The notes: a model not told the origin generated them from the sequence alone. A stretch of DNA of 13,486 nt from a virus (IMGVR_UViG_2534681899_000005), one strand, 5' to 3'. Positions 344-13,486 are shown, numbered from the stretch's first letter. Numbers and translations are program-made.

Positions 344-541
344 TAACCTGTAAAGAATTTTCACACCTGTGTGTTTATACAGTCATACTCTCCTGTTTTG
401 CAGTCATTGCACCCATGATACACAGCCCCTAACCTGTCAAAATATTTTACTACCCCACCAATAATACGGCCCATACCTGTAAAATATTTTTACTACTACC
501 TGTCAAAATCTTTTACTACTACCTGTAAAAATATTTGACAC
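344..541. repeat. Iteron array: five direct 22-24-bp repeats, three contiguous; candidate replication origin
   Basis: Copies at 344-366, 430-453, 474-496, 497-519 and 520-541 share the core ACCTGT[A/C]AAAAT(A/C)TTTTACTAC; AT-rich context. Confidence 0.7.
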
Positions 542-1173: not shown

Positions 1174-1323
1174 GTGGAAATTACTGATGCAATAGCGATC
1201 ATCAACCTGGCTGTACTGTGGTGCGGTGTTGCCTACATAGCCGGAGTAACTGCAATCGACAATCTTGAAGAAAAAATGATAGATAAATACAAAAAGATTG
1301 TTGACAATTTGACGAATGTCTGA
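1174..1323 (+). CDS. Hypothetical small hydrophobic peptide (49 codons, GTG start)
   Basis: GGAGG at 1164-1168 lies 5 nt before GTG 1174. The translation VEITDAIAIINLAVLWCGVAYIAGVTAIDNLEEKMIDKYKKIVDNLTNV has one predicted TM helix and a charged tail. Below the ORF-track size cutoff and overlaps the downstream promoter. Confidence 0.2.
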   Translation: MEITDAIAIINLAVLWCGVAYIAGVTAIDNLEEKMIDKYKKIVDNLTNV

Positions 1324-1454: not shown

Positions 1455-1664
1455 ATGGCTAAAACCGGACCGATAAGCCAGCTTGTAAACTGGACTACTG
1501 ACGAAATCGTCGAGAACGTGCTTAAAGGTAACTTTCGAAAAACTTCCGTTTATGCATTTATTCGTAAACACAAAGGAGAATATCCACACATTGAAGCGGC
1601 AATAGAAAAACTTAACTTTATCCGTATTGAGCGTGAGCTGGAAAGATATAAACATCTACTTTGA
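1455..1664 (+). CDS. Small (69 aa) putative DNA-binding regulator
   Basis: ATG preceded by AGGAGA RBS; stop overlaps the TTG at 1661 of the next gene; basic, with an HTH-like segment (TTDEIVENVLKGNFRKTSVYAFIRKH). Family not recognised. Confidence 0.5.
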   Translation: MAKTGPISQLVNWTTDEIVENVLKGNFRKTSVYAFIRKHKGEYPHIEAAIEKLNFIRIERELERYKHLL

Positions 1665-1684: not shown

Positions 1685-2590
1685 ATGGCAAACAATAAAC
1701 TGGGGGCACATTTCACCCCAATTTTTAAACGTTTCATCAAGTATAATTTTGAAAATCCAATTGCAAAAACTACAACAGGCAAAGAGAGATTTAATTTAAA
1801 TGCGACGGAATTGATAATTTACGGGGAAATGGTTGGCTTTCATTTAAACGGCAACGAAATATTCATCTCGGAGCAGACCTTAGCAGATGATTGGGATTTT
1901 TCAAGACCAACGATTATTAAAGCTATTAAATCTCTAGTAAATGCTGGGATTATTTCTAAAGATAACCGGAAAGGCAAATCTAACATTTACAAACTGTTAA
2001 TTACACCTGAGCAGTTTGATAAAATGTGCGATGAGCAGGGTATTAAAACCTTAGACAGTGTGGGAGACAGCAAAGAGGCACCTGCTACACAGGCCCAAGA
2101 TAATCAACAGGAAGCCCCAAAAAAAGCCGCACAGCAAGCTAAAAAGGCTAAAGTAGTGCAATTGCCTACCCAAGACACTAAAGCGCCTCAAATTAACGCT
2201 GTTAGTGACAAGCCACGCCGGGGCCGTCCTGTGAAAGATGCAACAGATGGAGGCTGGATCGCCCTGGGTGAGAGTGAGGCTAAAGGCATAATGCGATCAC
2301 TGTGGGAAAGCAAATACAAAGATTTAAACAAACGTCGCCCGATCCTTTTGTCAAAGATTCAGGAGGATTTTTACACCGCAGAAGAGGTAAGCCAACATAA
2401 AGGGAAAAGAGAGGGTGAAATCTGGAAACCGGAAGAATACTGGCATTTAACCAGACCTGTGTTTATTTTTGCAAATAAGCTTATTGGGATGGGATTTGAA
2501 ATATTGTTAGATAAAACCTGCGGAGATTATCCCGAAATATTGTGGAGAAATGTTAGAAAAAATAAAAAAGGCATTTTAGAGTTTAAATAA
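1685..2590 (+). CDS. Putative replication initiator / replisome-organiser-like protein (winged helix plus AT-hook)
   Basis: ATG 1685 with GAGGGA RBS (the track uses in-frame TTG 1661). N-terminal winged-helix-like region (..FISEQTLADDWDFSRPTIIKAIKSLVNAGIISKD..), P/Q/A/K-rich linker with AT-hook KPRRGRPVK, C-terminal domain. Iteron array lies about 1.1 kb upstream. Confidence 0.45.
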   Translation: MANNKLGAHFTPIFKRFIKYNFENPIAKTTTGKERFNLNATELIIYGEMVGFHLNGNEIFISEQTLADDWDFSRPTIIKAIKSLVNAGIISKDNRKGKSNIYKLLITPEQFDKMCDEQGIKTLDSVGDSKEAPATQAQDNQQEAPKKAAQQAKKAKVVQLPTQDTKAPQINAVSDKPRRGRPVKDATDGGWIALGESEAKGIMRSLWESKYKDLNKRRPILLSKIQEDFYTAEEVSQHKGKREGEIWKPEEYWHLTRPVFIFANKLIGMGFEILLDKTCGDYPEILWRNVRKNKKGILEFK

Positions 2591-4592: not shown

Positions 4593-6719
4593 ATGGCAAT
4601 GAAGGAAGTCGCCAGACTAACAAACGTTATTTACTGGGATTCTGATAAATCCAGCTGGCGAAAAGAAGTTAAACGGCTTGAGGATTATAAAAAATCCTGG
4701 AAGAAAGCCACCGACGATATAGCTAAAGCGGATTTTAAATCGAATCAGGCTGTGCTCAGAACACAAAGAACACGCGCTAAGGTGGAAGAGCAGATTGCCA
4801 GAGCACAGAAGAAACAACGTGCTCAGGCTGTCAGCCGTCTGACCGGGGGCAATAATCCGGAGCTCTCCTCTATGCGCAAGTTCTACCAACAACAAGCCAG
4901 AGAAGCCGCCAGACAACAAAAACTGTTAGATCGTAGTGTTGGAGATGTTCAGCACAGAAAAGCACGTGTAGGGGCCAACAGTGCACGAATCAGCAGCATG
5001 TTTGATGGCTCCCTGGTTGCTCAGTTCCAATCCAGAATTCAGAGAGTTAATGCTGATTATGCTAAAGGGGCTATTAACCTGCAGACCTATAATCAGAAAA
5101 TGGCCCGACTCAGAGCTGAAATGAAGATGGCAACAGCAGAGGCCGGAAAATTTCAGAGCAGACTAGACAAAGCTGCGGTAGCAGGATCTAAGCTGCATGA
5201 CAACCTGGGGAAACTCAACTCCACACTTGGCAAGATAGCTATTGGCCTTACTGCCGCTGGCTGGGGTGTTCAGCGTGCTGTTAGTGGTGCTATGGGTAGC
5301 CTTGCAGATCGCAACAGTGCCTACTTCGGTTTGATGGCACAGAACAAGGATGATAAAGCCAAGACTGATCAGCAGATGGCTTTTATCAAGAACACAGCCT
5401 ACACCTACGGGATGGATGAGCGGGAGATGCAAGGTGGCTACATGCGCTTTGCTGCAGCTACCCCCACCATGAAGGAATCTGATAAGCAGGCTCTTTTTGA
5501 GGCTATGGCTATTAAAGGTCGCTCAGTGGGTGCTACTGGCGAGCAACAGAACAGGGCGCTTGTTGCGGTCCAACAAATGGCTTCAAAGGGAAAAGTTATG
5601 GCAGAAGAGCTGCGGGGCCAACTGTCAGAAGCCTTTGCAGGCTCACAACAGGATTTTCAACAGGCCGCTATTGATGCCGGAATCATCAAGAATGCCCAGG
5701 AATTCGATAAAGCCCTTAAAGATGGCAAAATCACCCTGGATAAGCTTCTCCCTTCTTTGGTGAAAATCTGGGGTGCTGCAAAAGAAACTAAAGCTTTTGC
5801 TGAATCCATGAAACAGCCAGAAGTAGCAATGCAGCGCATGAAAAACAGCTTTAACGAGCTGGCGATCCAGTTTATGGGTGTTGTAGATCCTGCAGATGGC
5901 GTTATTAGCTTATCTGAATCTCTGATCTCCATCTTCGAAGACCTCACTACTGATATGGACGGCAGCGGGAGCGCGGCAAAACAGTTTGGTGAGGCAGTCG
6001 GTGCTGCCATGCGGGAGATCATGTATTGGGTAGGCTTCGCTAAGGGATATATTGAGGTCAAGGCTAAAGAGTTCGGCATGACCGGATCAGAGGTTGGCGA
6101 GCTTATCGGGAAACTGGTAGTCGGCTTAGCTGGTCTGAAAGTTATTACCACACTGCTTTCCCCTCTAACCGGATTTGTTTCACTTGTCACCCAACTGATT
6201 TCTCTGATAGGCAAGATTCCAGGTCTGGGCAATCTCGTTAAGGGTGCAGGTGGTGCAGTCGCTGGAAGCCCAACAACAGCATTAGCCGCTGGCAGTGCCG
6301 CAGGTGTGGGTGTTGGTGTCGCTGGCGCACTGGGCGCTAAGACGGTAGGTGAGAAGTTCAGAGGATGGATGCAAAGCAAGGCTGATCAGTTCGGGGAGTG
6401 GGCTAAATCTAAAGGCCTGCTTAGCGATGAACAGGACGCTATGACCAAACCGGGGGCCTATAACCATAGCTACATCAACAAGGGAGCTTCTTTTAATCCA
6501 TATCCAACCATTAGCCCATCACGTCCTACTCCTAGCACTGGTACGGCTATTCAGAATGGTGGCTATCAACCTGCTCAGGTTAATGTGGTGCCTCAAGGTG
6601 AGATTTCCGGCAAATGGGAGATAACCATCGATGAGGGGGGAATTGCCAGGGTGATTCAGAAGGAAGTCAGCGATCAGTTGGATTGGAAAGCCACACAGGA
6701 ATCTAATCAGCTTTTCTAA
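4593..6719 (+). CDS. Phage tail tape-measure-like protein (708 aa)
   Basis: GAGGTG RBS then ATG 4593. N-terminal about 200 aa is Q/R/A/K-rich and coiled-coil-like; central ..GATGEQQNRALVAVQQMASKGKVMAEELRGQLSEAFAG.. resembles the conserved tape-measure core; C-terminal Gly/Ala-rich hydrophobic segments; no Walker A or catalytic motif seen. Confidence 0.6.
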   Translation: MAMKEVARLTNVIYWDSDKSSWRKEVKRLEDYKKSWKKATDDIAKADFKSNQAVLRTQRTRAKVEEQIARAQKKQRAQAVSRLTGGNNPELSSMRKFYQQQAREAARQQKLLDRSVGDVQHRKARVGANSARISSMFDGSLVAQFQSRIQRVNADYAKGAINLQTYNQKMARLRAEMKMATAEAGKFQSRLDKAAVAGSKLHDNLGKLNSTLGKIAIGLTAAGWGVQRAVSGAMGSLADRNSAYFGLMAQNKDDKAKTDQQMAFIKNTAYTYGMDEREMQGGYMRFAAATPTMKESDKQALFEAMAIKGRSVGATGEQQNRALVAVQQMASKGKVMAEELRGQLSEAFAGSQQDFQQAAIDAGIIKNAQEFDKALKDGKITLDKLLPSLVKIWGAAKETKAFAESMKQPEVAMQRMKNSFNELAIQFMGVVDPADGVISLSESLISIFEDLTTDMDGSGSAAKQFGEAVGAAMREIMYWVGFAKGYIEVKAKEFGMTGSEVGELIGKLVVGLAGLKVITTLLSPLTGFVSLVTQLISLIGKIPGLGNLVKGAGGAVAGSPTTALAAGSAAGVGVGVAGALGAKTVGEKFRGWMQSKADQFGEWAKSKGLLSDEQDAMTKPGAYNHSYINKGASFNPYPTISPSRPTPSTGTAIQNGGYQPAQVNVVPQGEISGKWEITIDEGGIARVIQKEVSDQLDWKATQESNQLF

Positions 6720-6792
6720 TGCTGGAAGATAGCGCAGCTTTACTGATATTGTGATCAAAATCAATAAGTTAGCCCGACCGGATAAACTCCAG

Positions 6793-6828
6793 GCAAGAAA
6801 AAAGCCCCTAAGTGTTAACAAAGGGGCT
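6793..6828 (-). terminator. Intrinsic terminator, clearest on the minus strand (possibly bidirectional)
   Basis: Stem AGCCCCT (6803-6809) / AGGGGCT (6822-6828) with a 12-nt loop. On the minus strand it is followed by TTTTTTCTT (complement of 6793-6802); on the plus strand only by CTCTTCTCC. Confidence 0.5.
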
Positions 6829-6849
6829 CTTCTCCGGTATCCTTTTGAT

Positions 6850-6964
6850 GCGGGGCGAACCTGCTAACAAAAATCAACCTCTCGCGAGACTAATGTTAGC
6901 AGGTTGCCGGAAGGTAAGTCAACTCCGGCCTATAAACCTTAAAGCGACTATAAAATCGCCCCGC
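6850..6964. other. Highly structured element with nested perfect inverted repeats (candidate structured RNA or protein-binding site)
   Basis: 9-bp outer stem GCGGGGCGA (6850-6858) / TCGCCCCGC (6956-6964) encloses a 10-bp stem CCTGCTAACA (6860-6869) / TGTTAGCAGG (6895-6904), whose loop holds the palindrome TCTCGCGAGA, plus hairpin GCCGGA / TCCGGC (6906-6929). Confidence 0.4.
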
Positions 6965-7246
6965 CAATTGTGATGATCCGACCTTTGAGGCGGGTCCGGT
7001 GCCCAGGGGGTGCAGTGATGCACAAACCAGGCAACGATAAACAGGCTAACAGTGATAGCGGCGCTCAATCAGCGCACTAAATCCTAACCAGTCCGGGAAA
7101 GAGGCTGGCTCTATCGACCGCTCATGCACGGGACAATGCATACCTGATAAAGGATTCTCACAAGGGACCAATCGCGAGAAAAGAAGTGGAAAGGGGCTGA
7201 TTTGTGGTGTATCACTACGGCCTCAAAAGAACACTATTGTCTTTTT

Positions 7247-7705
7247 TCAGCCTCTCCCCACATTTGACCAGTATTTGATTGCACCGATCAAATCATCATA
7301 GTGGCGCATTGCATCATTGAAGCCTTTATAGCTTGCCCATTGTGGGGAAACCTTGTTATTGCTGAATTGCCCACTAATCAGGATAGTCTCCAAAATGTCG
7401 GCGTATCGCTTGCCAATTCGCTTTCTGACGGCCTCAGAGCTCCCACCCTTTACGATTGCATTAATCAGGGCTTTTGTGTGTCTCAGGCTCTCATAGAGCA
7501 TTGCAGCGTGGGCAGATTCCATAAAGGAGCGCTTAGGCAGATCACCCCACCCCTCAGAATGAATTGCTGCCAGTGTGGCGTAATTCAGGCCGCTATAGTG
7601 TTTCCCGTCATCCCAGCCAACCGCTACACCTTCCATCTGTGAGAGCTCTTTATGCAGCTTATCCATCATGCGCTTGTCTATGGTGCAACGGACTTTCGGA
7701 CTCAT
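7247..7705 (-). CDS. Phage virion morphogenesis / head-tail joining protein (HK97 gp10 / Mu G-like), 152 aa
   Basis: Start overlaps the upstream stop by ATGA (7702-7705); motif ..NYATLAAIHSEGWGDLPKRSFMES.. resembles the Y-A-x-H-x-x-G...P-x-R-x-F signature of this family, recalled from memory. Confidence 0.4.
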   Translation of the reverse strand: MSPKVRCTIDKRMMDKLHKELSQMEGVAVGWDDGKHYSGLNYATLAAIHSEGWGDLPKRSFMESAHAAMLYESLRHTKALINAIVKGGSSEAVRKRIGKRYADILETILISGQFSNNKVSPQWASYKGFNDAMRHYDDLIGAIKYWSNVGRG

Positions 7706-8514
7706 TTGTTGATCTCCGTGATGTCATCGAGCAACATGTTGGCCTTATCAATCATCGTTTCGTGGAACTCATTCGACACAACAGACTTATCACCTGCGGC
7801 AATCTTTCCCGCTGCCTCTCCCTGTGCATATTCCCCGCGATGCTTAGCCCTGGTTGATTTCGTAGCAGCGTTGCCAGCGTTGCTACCCTCTTTAGCACTG
7901 TTAACAGCGCCCTTTTGCTGTGTTTTATTCACCTTCTTACTGTTAGTGAAAACTCCGGCATTTTCGACCATCTTCACCTTGAAGGTGCGGAATTCTTCAA
8001 AAGTGCAATCAATAGTGATGCAGTCACCAGAGGAAGAGCTACGCTTAACTTCACATTTCGTCATGATGAAGTTCTCAAGGAGTCCGGCATCTTCACTTAC
8101 CAGGCTAACTAGCTGGCGCTTGTCTCTCATTTCCATAAGTGCCTGAACAGCGGCAGCAGGGCGCATAGATTCACGGGGATTATCTGGATCAGTGTTCCGG
8201 TCGATGTAGTTCTCTTTCCGGATGATATGAGGGGAAGAGGTAATAATGCCCGTAAAGCTGACAGATTTATCTTTAATGACGGCATGGTCTGACATGGTGG
8301 TGCCATCCTCGACCGCATAGCTCGATTTCTCGACAGGGAACGAATAGCTGACATCAGAGATTGAGTCAAAGAAGATAGCCACGTTATCGGTATAGTTGAA
8401 GCCATCCATTATATTTTTGTTTTGTGAATATCCCCCACACATAACAGTGAATGCAGGAGATCTCGATTCAGCTTGTTTTGCAGCTGTCAGAGCATCACTA
8501 GCCATATTAAACAT
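7702..8514 (-). CDS. Hypothetical protein, possibly phage structural (270 aa)
   Basis: Long ORF in the capsid operon, translationally coupled to the next gene; C-terminal half is low-complexity K/A/G/N-rich; no family recognised. Confidence 0.45.
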   Translation of the reverse strand: MFNMASDALTAAKQAESRSPAFTVMCGGYSQNKNIMDGFNYTDNVAIFFDSISDVSYSFPVEKSSYAVEDGTTMSDHAVIKDKSVSFTGIITSSPHIIRKENYIDRNTDPDNPRESMRPAAAVQALMEMRDKRQLVSLVSEDAGLLENFIMTKCEVKRSSSSGDCITIDCTFEEFRTFKVKMVENAGVFTNSKKVNKTQQKGAVNSAKEGSNAGNAATKSTRAKHRGEYAQGEAAGKIAAGDKSVVSNEFHETMIDKANMLLDDITEINK

Positions 8515-8975: not shown

Positions 8976-10022
8976 TTATTTAGCCTTGGCTTTTGCCAGA
9001 GCAGCGGCGGCGGAGTTACTAACACTCACTTTAACCACAACTTCAGGCATCATGTTCATGAAAGCATAAGAGGATTCAATGAAGATTTCTCGTTTACCTC
9101 TGGACTCTTCCATATACATGAAAGCTTCACGTGCAGCGCCGTTTGCAAGCTTCAGGTTGCGAGCGCAAGGGCCGAAAAATTGAGTATAAACGCCCACCAT
9201 ATCGCCTAACGCATGCGGCTGGAACTGTGGGACCAGATAAGCAGTATTCTCTGGCAGACTATCCATTTGCACCACACGCAGAGCTAAGCCTGGAATGCGG
9301 AAAGTCGGGAAGCCCGGCAGAATATCCTCAGGGAACATCAGACCTTTATCGGTAATATTCTGATTGCCGAACAACAGCACTTTTCGCAACAGTTCATCAG
9401 TCTGAATTGCAGCAAAGAGTTCAGCACGGCAGAACAGGGTGAAACCACGCAGAGCACGAACGACACCACGCTGTTTAACCTTGCTCAGTGCAACCAGGTC
9501 CTGCAGTTGTTTGAGGATGTCTTGAGCTAGATCCACTTCAGAGGTGGACTGTTCCACGCCCAGCAGTTCGCACACATTCAGTTCTTTACCCTTGGTGAGG
9601 ATAATTTTGTTCTCAAAGAGAGCAAGCTGGCGTGCTTCTTCGTGGGTCTGGCGTAAGCCTTCACCCAACTGAATAACACGACGAGCGGTTACAGACTCTA
9701 AATTCTCTTCGGAATCTTTGCCCGGAACACGGATACCTTGCCAGTCAGAAGGATAAATAGCACTTGATGCGGCAGTGAATGCCATATCACCCGTGCCCGT
9801 TTCACGCTCATCTGCGGTAATGGTAGCCATCTGTTCACCGTAGCGCGGATACTGACCGAAAGCGGATTGTTTCACCTGGCGAACTTTGTCATATTCAAAT
9901 TTAAAGGTATTGCACAGAGCAGTAGTGTTGAAGATATCCATTGCTGAAATAATCTGGTTATCCAGCGGGATATCTTTAATCAGACCACACAGATCGCGAA
10001 CTTCGAATTCTTTCTTAGCCAT
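8976..10022 (-). CDS. Putative major capsid protein, lambda gpE-like (348 aa)
   Basis: ATG (complement of 10020-10022) with AAGGAGG RBS 6 nt upstream; the track ORF starts at in-frame TTG. Size and C-terminal segment (..KREIFIESSYAFMNMMPEVVVKV..) resemble lambda E-family capsid proteins as recalled; follows a ~110-aa gene as in lambda D-E. Not searched. Confidence 0.45.
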   Translation of the reverse strand: MAKKEFEVRDLCGLIKDIPLDNQIISAMDIFNTTALCNTFKFEYDKVRQVKQSAFGQYPRYGEQMATITADERETGTGDMAFTAASSAIYPSDWQGIRVPGKDSEENLESVTARRVIQLGEGLRQTHEEARQLALFENKIILTKGKELNVCELLGVEQSTSEVDLAQDILKQLQDLVALSKVKQRGVVRALRGFTLFCRAELFAAIQTDELLRKVLLFGNQNITDKGLMFPEDILPGFPTFRIPGLALRVVQMDSLPENTAYLVPQFQPHALGDMVGVYTQFFGPCARNLKLANGAAREAFMYMEESRGKREIFIESSYAFMNMMPEVVVKVSVSNSAAAALAKAKAK

Positions 10023-10033
10023 TTTCAACCTCC

Positions 10034-10369: not shown

Positions 10370-10667
10370 TTGATCACCTGCGATTTAAATTAACTCCCCT
10401 CAAAGAGTTCCGGTATAACCTCTCAAACCACGACAGGCTCGGGCCGAAAAGTTATGCCGGAAATCTAAAGGGAAATTGATACAAGGAGAGGGAGATAGCC
10501 CCGCACCGTCCAAGCGGGGGCTATTCCACATGGGGAAACCGACAACAGTCGGATGATAGTTCACAGTATGATTACGGTTACTAGAGAGCACTATCACGAA
10601 AGGCACTCCCCCGGATCAGTTCAGGCTGCGGTCACATCAGCGGGGAAATACCTTTCGGGATAGCTAC

Positions 10668-10701
10668 CCACACAGAAAACCCGCAAAAGAAAACTGTGTG
10701 G
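10668..10701. promoter_or_regulatory. Inverted repeat CCACACAG-N18-CTGTGTGG in the capsid-operon leader
   Basis: Perfect 8-bp arms at 10668-10675 and 10694-10701; lies in the roughly 480-nt leader between promoter and decoration gene; overlaps TGTGGATAA. Confidence 0.35.
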
Positions 10702-10850
10702 ATAACTAGCCCAATAGGAGAATTAATCGACCACTCAACGATGATCAGGGTAGTGTTATTTATAAGGCGGCACCGCTACCTGGTCGCCTTTACTTTGGAG
10801 GAAAATACGGCAAATCAAGATCTTCTCAAATGATATTGATTCCATACTAT

Positions 10851-10870
10851 ACTGTATATTATATCAGTAT
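10851..10870. promoter_or_regulatory. LexA-box-like palindrome (SOS operator candidate)
   Basis: Minus strand reads TACTGATATAATATACAGTA, which keeps CTG-N10-CAG with an AT-rich spacer (consensus TACTGTATATATATACAGTA); overlaps the -10 of the capsid-operon promoter. Confidence 0.5.
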
Positions 10871-10887
10871 TCTCTCAAATTGTCAAC
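10859..10887 (-). promoter_or_regulatory. Consensus sigma70 promoter for the leftward capsid operon (TTGACA-17-TATAAT)
   Basis: Minus strand reads gtgTTGACAatttgagagaatactgaTATAATat: -35 at 10882-10887, -10 at 10859-10864, exact 17-bp spacer. Confidence 0.6.
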
Positions 10888-11193
10888 ACCCTGATTATAT
10901 AAATTCTAATAATTAGCGTGGTAACTGTATTTTCAGACCTCTATCAATCCCATCAATACGTCACCCCACCCTTTAGATGCATACATCCGACCTACTTTGT
11001 AGGCTTGGCGTACTGCCAAGGTCGCAGCTATGCGACTCCTATCTATCACCACTTTATAAAGCTTGATAGATATCTTTTGATCAATATCAATGTTTTCCAG
11101 GGATTTACCCGGCTATAGTTCGAATCAAGGAAGGGGAGCATTGATAGCACCCAACCGAGCAAACAAATCAACTTCTCGCAAAAGGTGATAGTT

Positions 11194-11316
11194 ATGGGTA
11201 TCAAGAACAGTGCCAGCGCATGGCAAAAGGCCAGGTTTCATCACCCACACATTGTTAAGGCAATTGAGGTGGTTGGAGTTTTAGCCCTGATGTTAGCTCT
11301 GTGTGTGGAGGTGTGA
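11194..11316 (+). CDS. Hypothetical small hydrophobic peptide (40 aa)
   Basis: AAGGTGA RBS 6 nt before the ATG; translation MGIKNSASAWQKARFHHPHIVKAIEVVGVLALMLALCVEV has a C-terminal TM-like segment; its leader shares a 15-nt motif with the 173-aa gene leader. Confidence 0.25.
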   Translation: MGIKNSASAWQKARFHHPHIVKAIEVVGVLALMLALCVEV

Positions 11317-11380
11317 GATAGGCAAAGGAGGCAAAGCATTTTTTAATAGGTCTGGCAGTCTTAGATTTTGTATTAATCAT

Positions 11381-11423
11381 CATTGAGCGGAGTTTATGAA
11401 CAGCATTGAGAGGAGTTTATGAC
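11381..11423 (+). repeat. Tandem duplication of a translation-initiation region, with an 8-codon upstream ORF coupled by ATGA
   Basis: CATTGAGCGGAGTTTATGAA (11381-11400) is followed by a near-identical second copy (11404-11423, CATTGAGAGGAGTTTATGAC); mini-ORF 11396-11422 (MNSIERSL) stops at TGA overlapping the main ATG at 11419. Confidence 0.45.
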
Positions 11424-12258: not shown

Positions 12259-12265
12259 CCTACCA

Positions 12266-12292
12266 GGGGGGCCATCACGGCCCCTTTTTATT
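12266..12292 (+). terminator. Rho-independent terminator
   Basis: GC stem GGGGCC / GGCCCC with loop ATCAC, followed by TTTTTATTTAT; 8 nt after the stop at 12258. Confidence 0.75.
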
Positions 12293-12366
12293 TATCCCTT
12301 ATTTACACTCCTTTCAGTCCTGATCATCACTCCCTACGGTAATGAGCAATTAACCCCTATTTAAGG

Positions 12367-12408
12367 GGTATTTAATGGGTATTTAATGCCTATTTATTGA
12401 TTTAATCC
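12367..12408. repeat. 11-bp tandem repeats (GGTATTTAATG x2 plus degenerate copies)
   Basis: GGTATTTAATG at 12367-12377 and 12378-12388, then CCTATTTATTG and ATTTAATCC; preceded by CCCCTATTTAAGGGG; related palindrome GGTATTAATACC at 12871-12882. Confidence 0.5.
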
Positions 12409-13099
12409 GTTTTATGCCACAACCGCCCGGTTGACAGAGTAAGAGAGAGGGTGTAACCCTTTTTCGTAAAACCAATAAAATCAATAGCTTAGCTCAATTG
12501 GCCTTTTCTCTGTTTTTGTCAAATTTAACATGCCCTCAAAAACTGCAAAATCTGGCTGCAAGATTATCTGCAGCTGGATTTCTTACACCTCAATTTGTGG
12601 TATCACCCTGACTAGTTTGTGCATAAAATGAACAGTTTTTAACATTTCCTATTCACCTGGTAACCACACAAAAAGCTAAAAACGAGGCACAGATAATCTT
12701 AGAGGCCTGTTTTCTTGTTATCACTCTGGGAACGTCGTAGAAGTGATTTTGATGAAAGACGGCCTACCCTATTACACCCCCATTTTTTGTTATCACAATT
12801 GCATCCTGTGCGGTATATGACTATGTGCTGAAAGCGGTCTCAGGTGTGGGTGTCAGAAATATCCATTAGCGGTATTAATACCCGTCAGATGTTCGTCTGA
12901 GGTGCCAGGCAGGCGCTCCCCTACCTCCCCTTTTTCTTCTAACAATTCTCAAATATCACACCACTGCCCACCACGTTGCTATTATGTTAATTCTTAAGCT
13001 TTGCTTTATGTTGTGCACATTATTTATTCAGGTGCGTGTACGTAAATTCTGGGCCTCCTTATCACGATTTTTAAATCAGATTTTGTAGTGCGCTTTATT

Positions 13100-13127
13100 A
13101 GTGTAGATAAGATCTATTATGTTAAAT
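13100..13127 (+). promoter_or_regulatory. Candidate Xer recombination site (dif/psi-like)
   Basis: AGTGTAGATAA-GATCTA-TTATGTTAAAT: right arm is identical to the E. coli dif XerD arm as recalled; 6-bp centre resembles pSC101 psi (GATCCA); left arm is degenerate versus GGTGCGCATAA (5 of 11). Confidence 0.35.
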
Positions 13128-13391
13128 GCAATTTTCCCAACCCTTCAAATCAATGACTTACATGTAAGCATGCACTAACACCCCACACAGCACATTAGAC
13201 GTGTAGATGTCCATATCCCACATTTTTGATTGTTTTGTAGTCATTCCCCTGATCATTTAACCAGTATAGTTTGTTCTCTGCAGACCACAAAATCGGAATT
13301 TACATCTGATTAACATAATCTGTTAGCATGATCACCATTACCCACACAACAATAACCCCATGCAAGCCTCTTCAGGCAATTTATCGGCGTG

Positions 13392-13486
13392 TTGGTGTGA
13401 ACAGTCTTTCATGTTCTTTATGTATCAGTTGTCCTGTGTGGTGATTTGGTGGACTGCCCCAGGGGCCATACTTATGATGCCCGGTC
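13392..13486. repeat. Right copy of 95-bp terminal direct repeat
   Basis: Exact match to 1-95 on the same strand. Confidence 0.9.

Follow-up and report, generated by a model that had tools for sequence, protein, structure and literature searches.

Dyad iterons matched to the recognition helix of a winged-helix Rep form a probable replication origin in a family of small Escherichia plasmids

The replication origin of phage lambda (NC_001416) is built from four 18-bp dyad iterons with an A-tract at the centre, whose starts lie 20, 24 and 23 bp apart, and these are followed by an AT-rich tract of ~40 bp and then by a palindrome. Among lambdoid relatives the N-terminal domain of the initiator O co-varies with the specificity of the iterons, and the C-terminal domain is exchanged independently. 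Lambda O acts as dimers on the iterons, three of which suffice (PMC7466680). The iterons of the RepA_N initiators have been described as 'semi-palindromic direct repeats converging on a poly-A tract' (PMC7145576). The repeat array analysed here shares features with both systems. It lies in a sequence of 13,486 nt (IMGVR_UViG_2534681899_000005), referred to below as the window, and all coordinates without a plasmid name refer to that sequence.

The first 95 nt of the window equal its last 95 nt exactly (1-95 = 13392-13486), an assembly overlap. The window thus represents an entire circle of 13,391 bp, an E. coli plasmid of 13.39 kb. In megablast searches, nt 1-2700 matched five PLSDB records, all small E. 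coli plasmids, as well as plasmids of seven of the 5,426 complete E. coli genomes and none of their chromosomes. The same segment had no megablast match in phage genomes, a tblastn search with Rep found nothing in 50,697 phage genomes, and a scan of IMG/VR for the conserved AT-rich tract described below returned no match; species-representative genomes gave a single marginal match, which was unrelated. Approximately 120 Rep variants were collected, almost all on ~13-14.4-kb contigs of E. coli, E. albertii and Shigella. The five PLSDB members are non-mobilizable by MOB-suite typing, and their Rep genes are annotated merely as generic 'helix-turn-helix'. A literature search by accession and by concept did not find a description of the plasmid family or its replicon, and one paper merely lists CP043822. 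This widespread Escherichia/Shigella plasmid family with phage capsid and tail genes thus appears to be undescribed.

For comparison, 30 relatives were assembled, nine of them annotated (L001-L009) and the others reached through 10 diverse Rep homologues. The nine share a gene order, with a 49-aa ORF, a 69-aa ORF, rep, unknown ORFs and a tape-measure gene on the plus strand, followed by neck, Dit-like baseplate and major-capsid genes on the minus strand and by an HTH_7 protein. In the window the tape-measure gene occupies 4593-6719 (plus strand; 26% identity to the tape measures of rV5-like myophages), and the neck, Dit-like baseplate and major capsid proteins are encoded on the minus strand at 7247-7705, 7702-8514 and 8976-10028. 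A gene for a terminase, portal, protease or integrase was not recognised on the plasmid, nor was a known defence gene, a helicase gene or a helicase-loader gene of the P-like or any other kind. About 2.3 kb (12259-13391 together with 1-1170) is without an annotated gene. Rfam and tRNA scans of the whole stretch gave nothing relevant, with one sub-threshold ctRNA match at 6793-6833. The family looks like a set of plasmid-borne phage satellites; according to a 2025 review, only one plasmid phage satellite is known and more may exist (PMC12282955). With phage capsid and tail genes aboard, knowing the origin would be a first step toward a test of that relationship. One relative, L009 (NZ_CP043822.1, 39,610 bp), is a head-to-tail trimer of a ~13.2-kb unit in which the structural genes of one copy are frameshifted or fragmented; it may be either a real multimer or an assembly artefact.

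Searching the window with the 19-nt sequence ACCTGTMAAAWWHTTTKAC at up to three mismatches gave plus-strand matches at 346, 432, 475, 498 and 521 (start-to-start spacings of 86, 43, 23 and 23 nt), and two reverse-strand matches that are overlaps arising from the internal dyad. The chance expectation was 0.20 matches, and none of 200 dinucleotide shuffles reached the observed seven. Tandem Repeats Finder (TRF) likewise reported a 23-nt period at 474-536 (2.7 copies, score 98). The initial annotation had described a classic iteron array of five direct repeats, three of them head-to-tail. The direct repeats are real and the last three copies keep an exact 23-bp period, but only four are cognate sites in the sense developed below, the copy at 346 belonging to a different, non-cognate class; and the array is iteron-like, but its sites are dyad-symmetric, of the lambda O/RepA_N type, not asymmetric as in the Rep_3 type. 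The four cognate iterons lie on the plus strand at 432-450 (ACCTGTCAAAATATTTTAC), 475-493, 498-516 and 521-539, at offsets of -105, -62, -39 and -16 from an AT-rich tract; the second is the first of the three 23-bp head-to-tail units and the fourth abuts the tract. This tract (541-573, strand-neutral; CTAATAGATAAAGTAATAGACCACACAATAAAT, starting CTAATAGATAAAG) is 33 bp long with 76% A+T. In every plasmid of the main Rep lineage the tract is kept and the four cognate sites stand at -105/-106, -62, -39 and -16 from it, and the cognate sites of all six classes of that lineage are dyads of 15-17 bp centred on A/T. The cognate array occurs once on the plasmid, the rep gene itself is without a cognate site, and no inverted-repeat operator was found at the rep promoter.

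The rep gene (1685-2590, plus strand, 301 aa) starts 1144 nt past the array, in agreement with the ~1.1 kb first reported, and the corresponding distance ranges from 1091 to 1820 nt in the family. This gap had been called unusual, structured and repeat-rich. Structured it is: from 560 to 1100 both strands fold far better than shuffled sequences (z = -5.5 for the plus strand, -4.7 for the minus strand). The gap is not all non-coding, however, and contains two promoter-like sites and two small ORFs. A GC-rich imperfect palindrome at 574-606 (strand-neutral), made of C-runs and then G-runs, directly follows the AT-rich tract, and the region from 607 to 1100 (strand-neutral) contains cassettes of local stem-loops bounded by TGTGTGG, arrayed at 607-1000 (for example 660-687, 701-713, 714-731, 758-788 and 802-866), none with an Rfam match. 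These hairpin cassettes have been gained, lost or replaced between otherwise near-identical relatives. Beyond them lie two strong, sigma-70-like promoter-like sites on the plus strand (1110-1138, TTGACA-17-TAAGAT, and 1301-1329, TTGACA-17-TAAAAT), near-identical and with an extended-10 TG. They bracket a conserved hydrophobic 49-aa ORF (1174-1323, plus strand), whose product could be a small membrane peptide or a toxin. A conserved 69-aa ORF, orf69 (1455-1664, plus strand), lies directly upstream of rep. The separation of array and gene is real and conserved, but it is not without precedent. In plasmid RK2, oriV is far from trfA. The RepA-dependent origin of PLE, a Vibrio cholerae phage satellite, is a repeat-rich non-coding region (NCR) away from repA (PMC7145576).

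Two further repeats were noted. The 7-mer TGTGTGG/CCACACA occurs 21 times in 13.4 kb against ~1.6 expected (CCACACA at, for example, 141, 209, 561, 12664, 13183 and 13342; TGTGTGG at, for example, 44, 694, 749, 795 and 895), and the large non-coding region carries it in opposite orientations on the two sides of the AT-rich tract, CCACACA to the left and TGTGTGG to the right. It is possibly a protein-binding or polar motif. Just past the terminator-like hairpin of orf173, at 12358-12396, there are 3.5 tandem copies of the 11-nt unit TATTTAATGGG, and a variant form is present in L025.

Rep begins with a winged helix-turn-helix (wHTH) domain at residues 40-117 (nt 1802-2035), within which residues 74-86 (nt 1904-1942) form the recognition helix; a disordered linker (residues 119-184) then leads to a folded C-terminal domain (residues 185-301). 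Its AlphaFold model has a mean pLDDT of 64, with well-defined domains, a single wHTH and a confident C-terminal domain. Rep passes the Pfam family HTH_36 (PF13730; 27.7 bits against a cut-off of 25, residues 37-90), a match that is also precomputed on most of its homologues. Twelve of its 16 PHROG matches are to replication initiators, O-like or DnaD-like proteins or helicase loaders (best E = 7e-10), and the other four to one HTH DNA-binding family and three families of unknown function. Among its nearest viral structural neighbours in BFVD are proteins named as lambda GpO N-terminal or as replication initiators, the majority of the remainder having only the name helix-turn-helix or no name, and fold searches of the PDB gave generic winged-helix matches only. 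The Pfam family Phage_rep_O scored 13.8 bits against a cut-off of 28.7 (E = 0.085) and DnaD_N was also sub-threshold; there was no match to Rep_3 at E <= 0.1 and none to RepA_N. The replicon is recovered as a circular plasmid of 13-14 kb, and Rep is its sole candidate for an initiator.

Across the family, Rep is a three-part mosaic in which the N-terminal domain classes are freely shuffled with three unrelated C-terminal alleles, ending GILEFK/R, ELTITK or KMVLLDK, on either side of a linker with the conserved motif QEAPKQA(A/T)QQ. This free shuffling suggests that the C-terminal domain is matched to a different variable partner. The initial annotation had placed an AT-hook, KPRRGRPVK, at 2210-2236 and proposed that it could engage the AT-rich iteron spacers. 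The coding coordinates are exact (residues 176-184, within the predicted disordered linker), but the proposed role is not supported. RGRP is restricted to one of the three C-terminal alleles (GILEFK/R), and identical iterons are used with the others: it occurs in six of 53 sampled Reps with the window's helix class, and L004 and L014-L020 carry the window's iterons with Reps that are without RGRP. The motif is therefore unlikely to be part of iteron recognition; it may have a role at the AT-rich tract. At the boundary of linker and C-terminal allele within rep (2152-2165) lies one copy of an exact 14-nt repeat, AGTAGTGCAATTGC, with the palindrome TGCAATTGCA inside; the other copy is at 978-991, and the pair could be a recombination joint or chance.

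The partner of the array was identified by comparing the relatives. Every relative of the main lineage has three 23-bp head-to-tail units at the same place, directly 5' of the AT-rich tract, and the sequence of the unit varies. A table of 29 plasmids, for which 19 further members were added, recorded the units, the helix-wing segment of Rep, the C-terminal allele and the array-to-rep distance. The repeat core CCTGTmAAAwwwTTTkAC goes with the helix SRPT(I/V)I(K/N)(A/S)IKS in the window, L004 and L014-L020; CCTGTTGGAATTTCCCACA with DRGKIVSAIKS in L002, L006 and L025; CTGAAGATTTCTCAC with SDRKIIESIKT in L001 and L013; CGGAAGATTTCTCCG with SDRKIRDSIKS in L003, L010-L012 and L026-L028; CGGTAAATATTTCCG with TEKTVRSAIKT in L005, L009, L021 and L022; and GGTAAAAATTACCG with TPKTVRTAI(H/Y)S in L008, L023 and L024. 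The two GAAGATTTCTC classes differ in their arms (CTGA versus CGGA). With classes assigned by inspecting alignments, and among plasmids that are kin rather than independent samples, the six repeat classes match the helix class of Rep in 28 of the 29. The match is independent of the three unrelated C-terminal alleles, of two wing variants and of an array-to-rep distance between 1091 and 1820 nt. Counted as distinct combinations of helix and C-terminal allele, 11 of 12 are concordant, and none of 200,000 permutations did as well.

The class-specific residues fall in the recognition helix, 74-86. Arginine at position 78 accompanies CGG...CCG arms in three of three classes, and isoleucine or valine accompanies other arms in three of three; Arg-guanine readout would be a physically sensible basis for the pairing. 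The wing was considered as the specificity determinant and rejected: in the natural hybrid L010/L011 the helix of one class is joined to the wing of another and the iterons follow the helix, and the window and L004 share iterons and differ in wing. Linkage does not account for the match. Plasmids of different class are 95-100% identical in the DNA that separates the array from rep, and in the window and L002 identity is 95-100% at 541-690, 811-960 and 1081-1680, compared with 0-71% (mostly 26-66%) at 211-540 and 43-78% at 1681-2100, which encodes the N-terminal domain of Rep. The array and that domain are thus two co-diverged islands split by conserved DNA, which argues for covariation and not linkage. 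No other protein covaries. Whatever the repeat class, the remaining proteins are 87-100% identical, with the exception of the tape measure, orf78 and orf173, which vary in patterns other than repeat class. As binders, orf69 (100% identical in the window and L002, without covariation with iteron class), the 86-aa HTH_7 protein, orf161 and all other ORFs were rejected, being 87-100% identical across differing repeats.

The sole exception among the 29, L007, combines an intact CGGTAAATATTTCCG array with an unrelated Rep N-terminal domain. This apparent counter-example was resolved as a second Rep lineage with repeats of its own, of which 31 variants were found, all on 13.5-14-kb E. coli contigs. 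In L007, L029 and L030 an insertion of ~520 nt just past the palindrome carries three direct repeats with conserved 44- and 33-nt spacing. The repeat TATCAAyATATCAAnnTGATATA goes with the helix GILQPNIARAIKK in L007 and L030, and GTGTGCGATAGCAGCACAT with the helix GIARTDALKAIKK in L029. The three units of the old array have ceased to be homogeneous in L029, and in L030 the old array, the AT-rich tract and the palindrome have all been lost. Arrays without a cognate Rep decay or are lost, and the intact array of L007 indicates that an array can outlast its partner. In total, eight helix/repeat classes in two Rep lineages, all of them concordant, were seen across 31 plasmids. That the repeats are binding sites of the plasmid's own Rep is strongly supported by this covariation, and comparison shows the N-terminal winged-helix domain to be the part that would recognise them, through its recognition helix.

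Covariation establishes a partnership of protein and site but not the firing of an origin, and a winged-helix protein with repeated sites might serve other purposes. One is partition, with the array as a centromere and Rep as a centromere-binding adaptor of the TubR/ParR/AspA type. Centromeres are also iterated and diversified in specificity, and Rep has weak sequence and fold matches to the winged-helix centromere binders TubR and AspA; generic wHTH regulators match just as well, though, searches of all ORFs with Pfam, PHROG, NCBIfam and PADLOC detected no NTPase of the ParA, ParM or TubZ type, and the AT-rich tract and the skew minimum described below would stay unexplained, making this reading highly improbable. 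Another is packaging, with Rep as a specificity factor of the lambda gpNu1 or satellite small-terminase type and the array as a cosB- or pac-like site for helper capsids. gpNu1 also has a winged helix and binds three repeated R sites, and the plasmid carries capsid, tape-measure, neck and Dit-like genes and no recognisable terminase. Against this, PHROG and Pfam gave no terminase match, and 12 of 16 PHROG matches are to families of helicase loaders or replication initiators; those viral structural neighbours with a functional name are replication proteins; the plasmid would, as under partition, be left without any initiator; and a diversity of specificity classes suits replicon incompatibility and suits the exploitation of a shared helper terminase less. 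A packaging role is consequently regarded as very unlikely.

The surroundings of the array point instead to replication. Cumulative GC skew, raw and detrended, has its global minimum at 589-590 and its maximum at 6690-7209, about half a circle apart, although the C-run/G-run at this place accentuates the exact minimum and gene orientation is a confounder of the broad trend. The minimum falls at the equivalent of 500-600 in seven to eight of nine rotated relatives. The skew is supportive but weak evidence for an origin near the array. The conserved AT-rich tract beside the fourth iteron is proposed to be the DNA-unwinding element. Rep binding alone does not define an origin, however, and the array could be a copy-control, incompatibility or autoregulatory locus comparable to incA of P1, with initiation elsewhere, for example at 10370-11418 or 2591-2890. 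The first of these, the second non-coding region, includes TTATCCACA (10697-10705, minus strand), a perfect match to the DnaA box, with AT-rich DNA next to it at 10800-10950, and the second, following rep, has 27-30% G+C and short tandem repeats. Such a control locus is nonetheless unlikely: the sole cognate array abuts the conserved AT-rich tract with the skew minimum there, and the new repeats of the second lineage were inserted at the array locus and not elsewhere. The repeats at 2591-2890 were rejected as an alternative cognate array, being identical between classes; 2611-2790 is 100% identical across Rep classes and so is without class-specific sites. The DnaA box at 10697 is enclosed by a 25-nt inverted repeat, CCCACACAG ... 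CTGTGTGG (10651-10718), and this region could be regulatory for the divergent structural operons or an alternative origin. Taking these points together, we consider it likely that the plasmid's vegetative replication origin has its initiator-binding part in the array at 432-539.

Compared directly, nt 39034-39160 of NC_001416 and nt 432-573 of the window are organised alike: tandem dyads with A/T centres and a period of ~20-24 bp (start spacings of 43, 23 and 23 bp on the plasmid), then an AT-rich tract, then a palindrome. Each initiator joins a DNA-binding domain at its N-terminus, through a flexible linker, to a C-terminal domain for the recruitment of partners, a role that is proposed in the case of Rep. 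The plasmid differs in that its origin lies outside the initiator gene, 1.1-1.8 kb upstream and beyond two small genes. No homology between Rep and lambda O was found by hhalign (probability 0.07%), and the resemblance of the two is confined to the PHROG 'O-like' families (E 1e-9) and the BFVD structural neighbours. With the RepA_N systems of pSK41, pTZ2162 and PLE the locus shares semi-palindromic iterons with an A-tract, a variable C-terminal domain and, as predicted for Rep, dimeric binding by the N-terminal domain. The RepA_N structures 4pql, 4pt7 and 5kbj were among the Foldseek matches in the PDB, scoring no better than generic wHTH regulators, and the plasmid is free, unlike the integrated island PLE. 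In the Rep_3 plasmids (pSC101, R6K, F, P1 and RK2), direct initiator repeats likewise stand beside an AT-rich element and the specificity of site and initiator defines the replicon; here, by contrast, dyads replace the asymmetric monomer sites, Rep has one wHTH instead of two WH domains, and the array is without nearby DnaA boxes. No DnaA box occurs within 1 kb of the array (TTWTNCACA matches only at 10697 and 12618), and neither an IHF consensus nor GATC clusters were found near it. The lack of a DnaA box and an IHF consensus near the array brings the locus closer to lambda than to the Rep_3 plasmids in that respect. The origin most likely belongs to a known type, the initiator-specific dyad-iteron origin, in a lambda-like build; what sets it apart are its detached position, the clean allelic series of eight classes and the presence of non-cognate sites.

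A mechanism can be proposed from these parallels. Rep would bind each of the four 15-17-bp dyads (GTmAAAwwwTTTkAC) as a dimer, as the symmetry of the sites implies. Like the lambda O-some, the complex of Rep and DNA would distort and open the 33-bp AT-rich tract at 541-573, and the C-terminal domain of Rep, in any of its three exchangeable alleles, would recruit a helicase or the replisome. Replication would then proceed in theta mode, probably bidirectionally, with a terminus near 6.7-7.2 kb as judged from the skew and from gene orientation. The sequence classes of helix and iteron would act as replicon-specificity groups of the incompatibility type.

In each of the plasmids (the window and L001-L028), single sites of other classes are well preserved upstream of the four cognate sites, with 0-2 mismatches to the consensus of those classes. 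The site at 274-292 of the window (plus strand, ACCTGTTGGGATTTCCTAC) belongs to the class from which L002, L006 and L025 build their tandem array, and the dyad at 326-340 (strand-neutral, CGGTAAATATTACCG) is of the array class of L005, L009, L021, L008 and L023. The copy at 346-364 (plus strand, ACCTGTAAAGAATTTTCAC), counted as repeat 1 in the initial annotation, is a 'class 7' dyad that is kept in relatives with other Rep and tandem-repeat classes; this dyad, TGTGAAGAATTTTCACA, is found in most plasmids, and none of those sampled has it as a tandem array. Such sites may be relics of past module swaps, or they may act as decoys for the initiators of rivals. The second possibility belongs to a broader and rather doubtful reading, in which the rep-ori module is under diversifying selection through competition among co-infecting relatives and the extra sites and orphan domains are interference devices, not fossils. 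The coordinated replacement of the recognition helix and four cognate sites, which switches specificity, would fit this reading, as would the intact other-class sites at 274-292, 326-340 and 346-364 and the orphan N-domain paralogues, described below, that have no matching sites. If it were true, decoy iterons would titrate the initiator of a rival plasmid, and DNA-binding domains incapable of initiation would occupy its origin.

Under the origin reading itself, the locus supplies the replicon of an apparently undescribed family of ~13-14.4-kb Escherichia/Shigella plasmids. Eight helix/site specificities on near-identical backbones are a ready data set for DNA recognition by winged helices (for example Arg78 and CGG), and the eight-class series could help to delimit incompatibility groups and could be drawn on in the construction of orthogonal small replicons. 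Additional domains related to Rep were also observed. In some plasmids a second-lineage paralogue consisting of the N-terminal domain alone (165-172 aa, 60-68% identity, helix intact) is encoded between orf69 and rep (L010 3520-4017, L011 6466-6963, L013 1394-1894 and L025 6333-6851), and the plasmids that carry it have no second-lineage repeats. A different extra HTH_36 ORF, of 124-128 aa, occupies the position between orf69 and rep in L012 and L026-L028.
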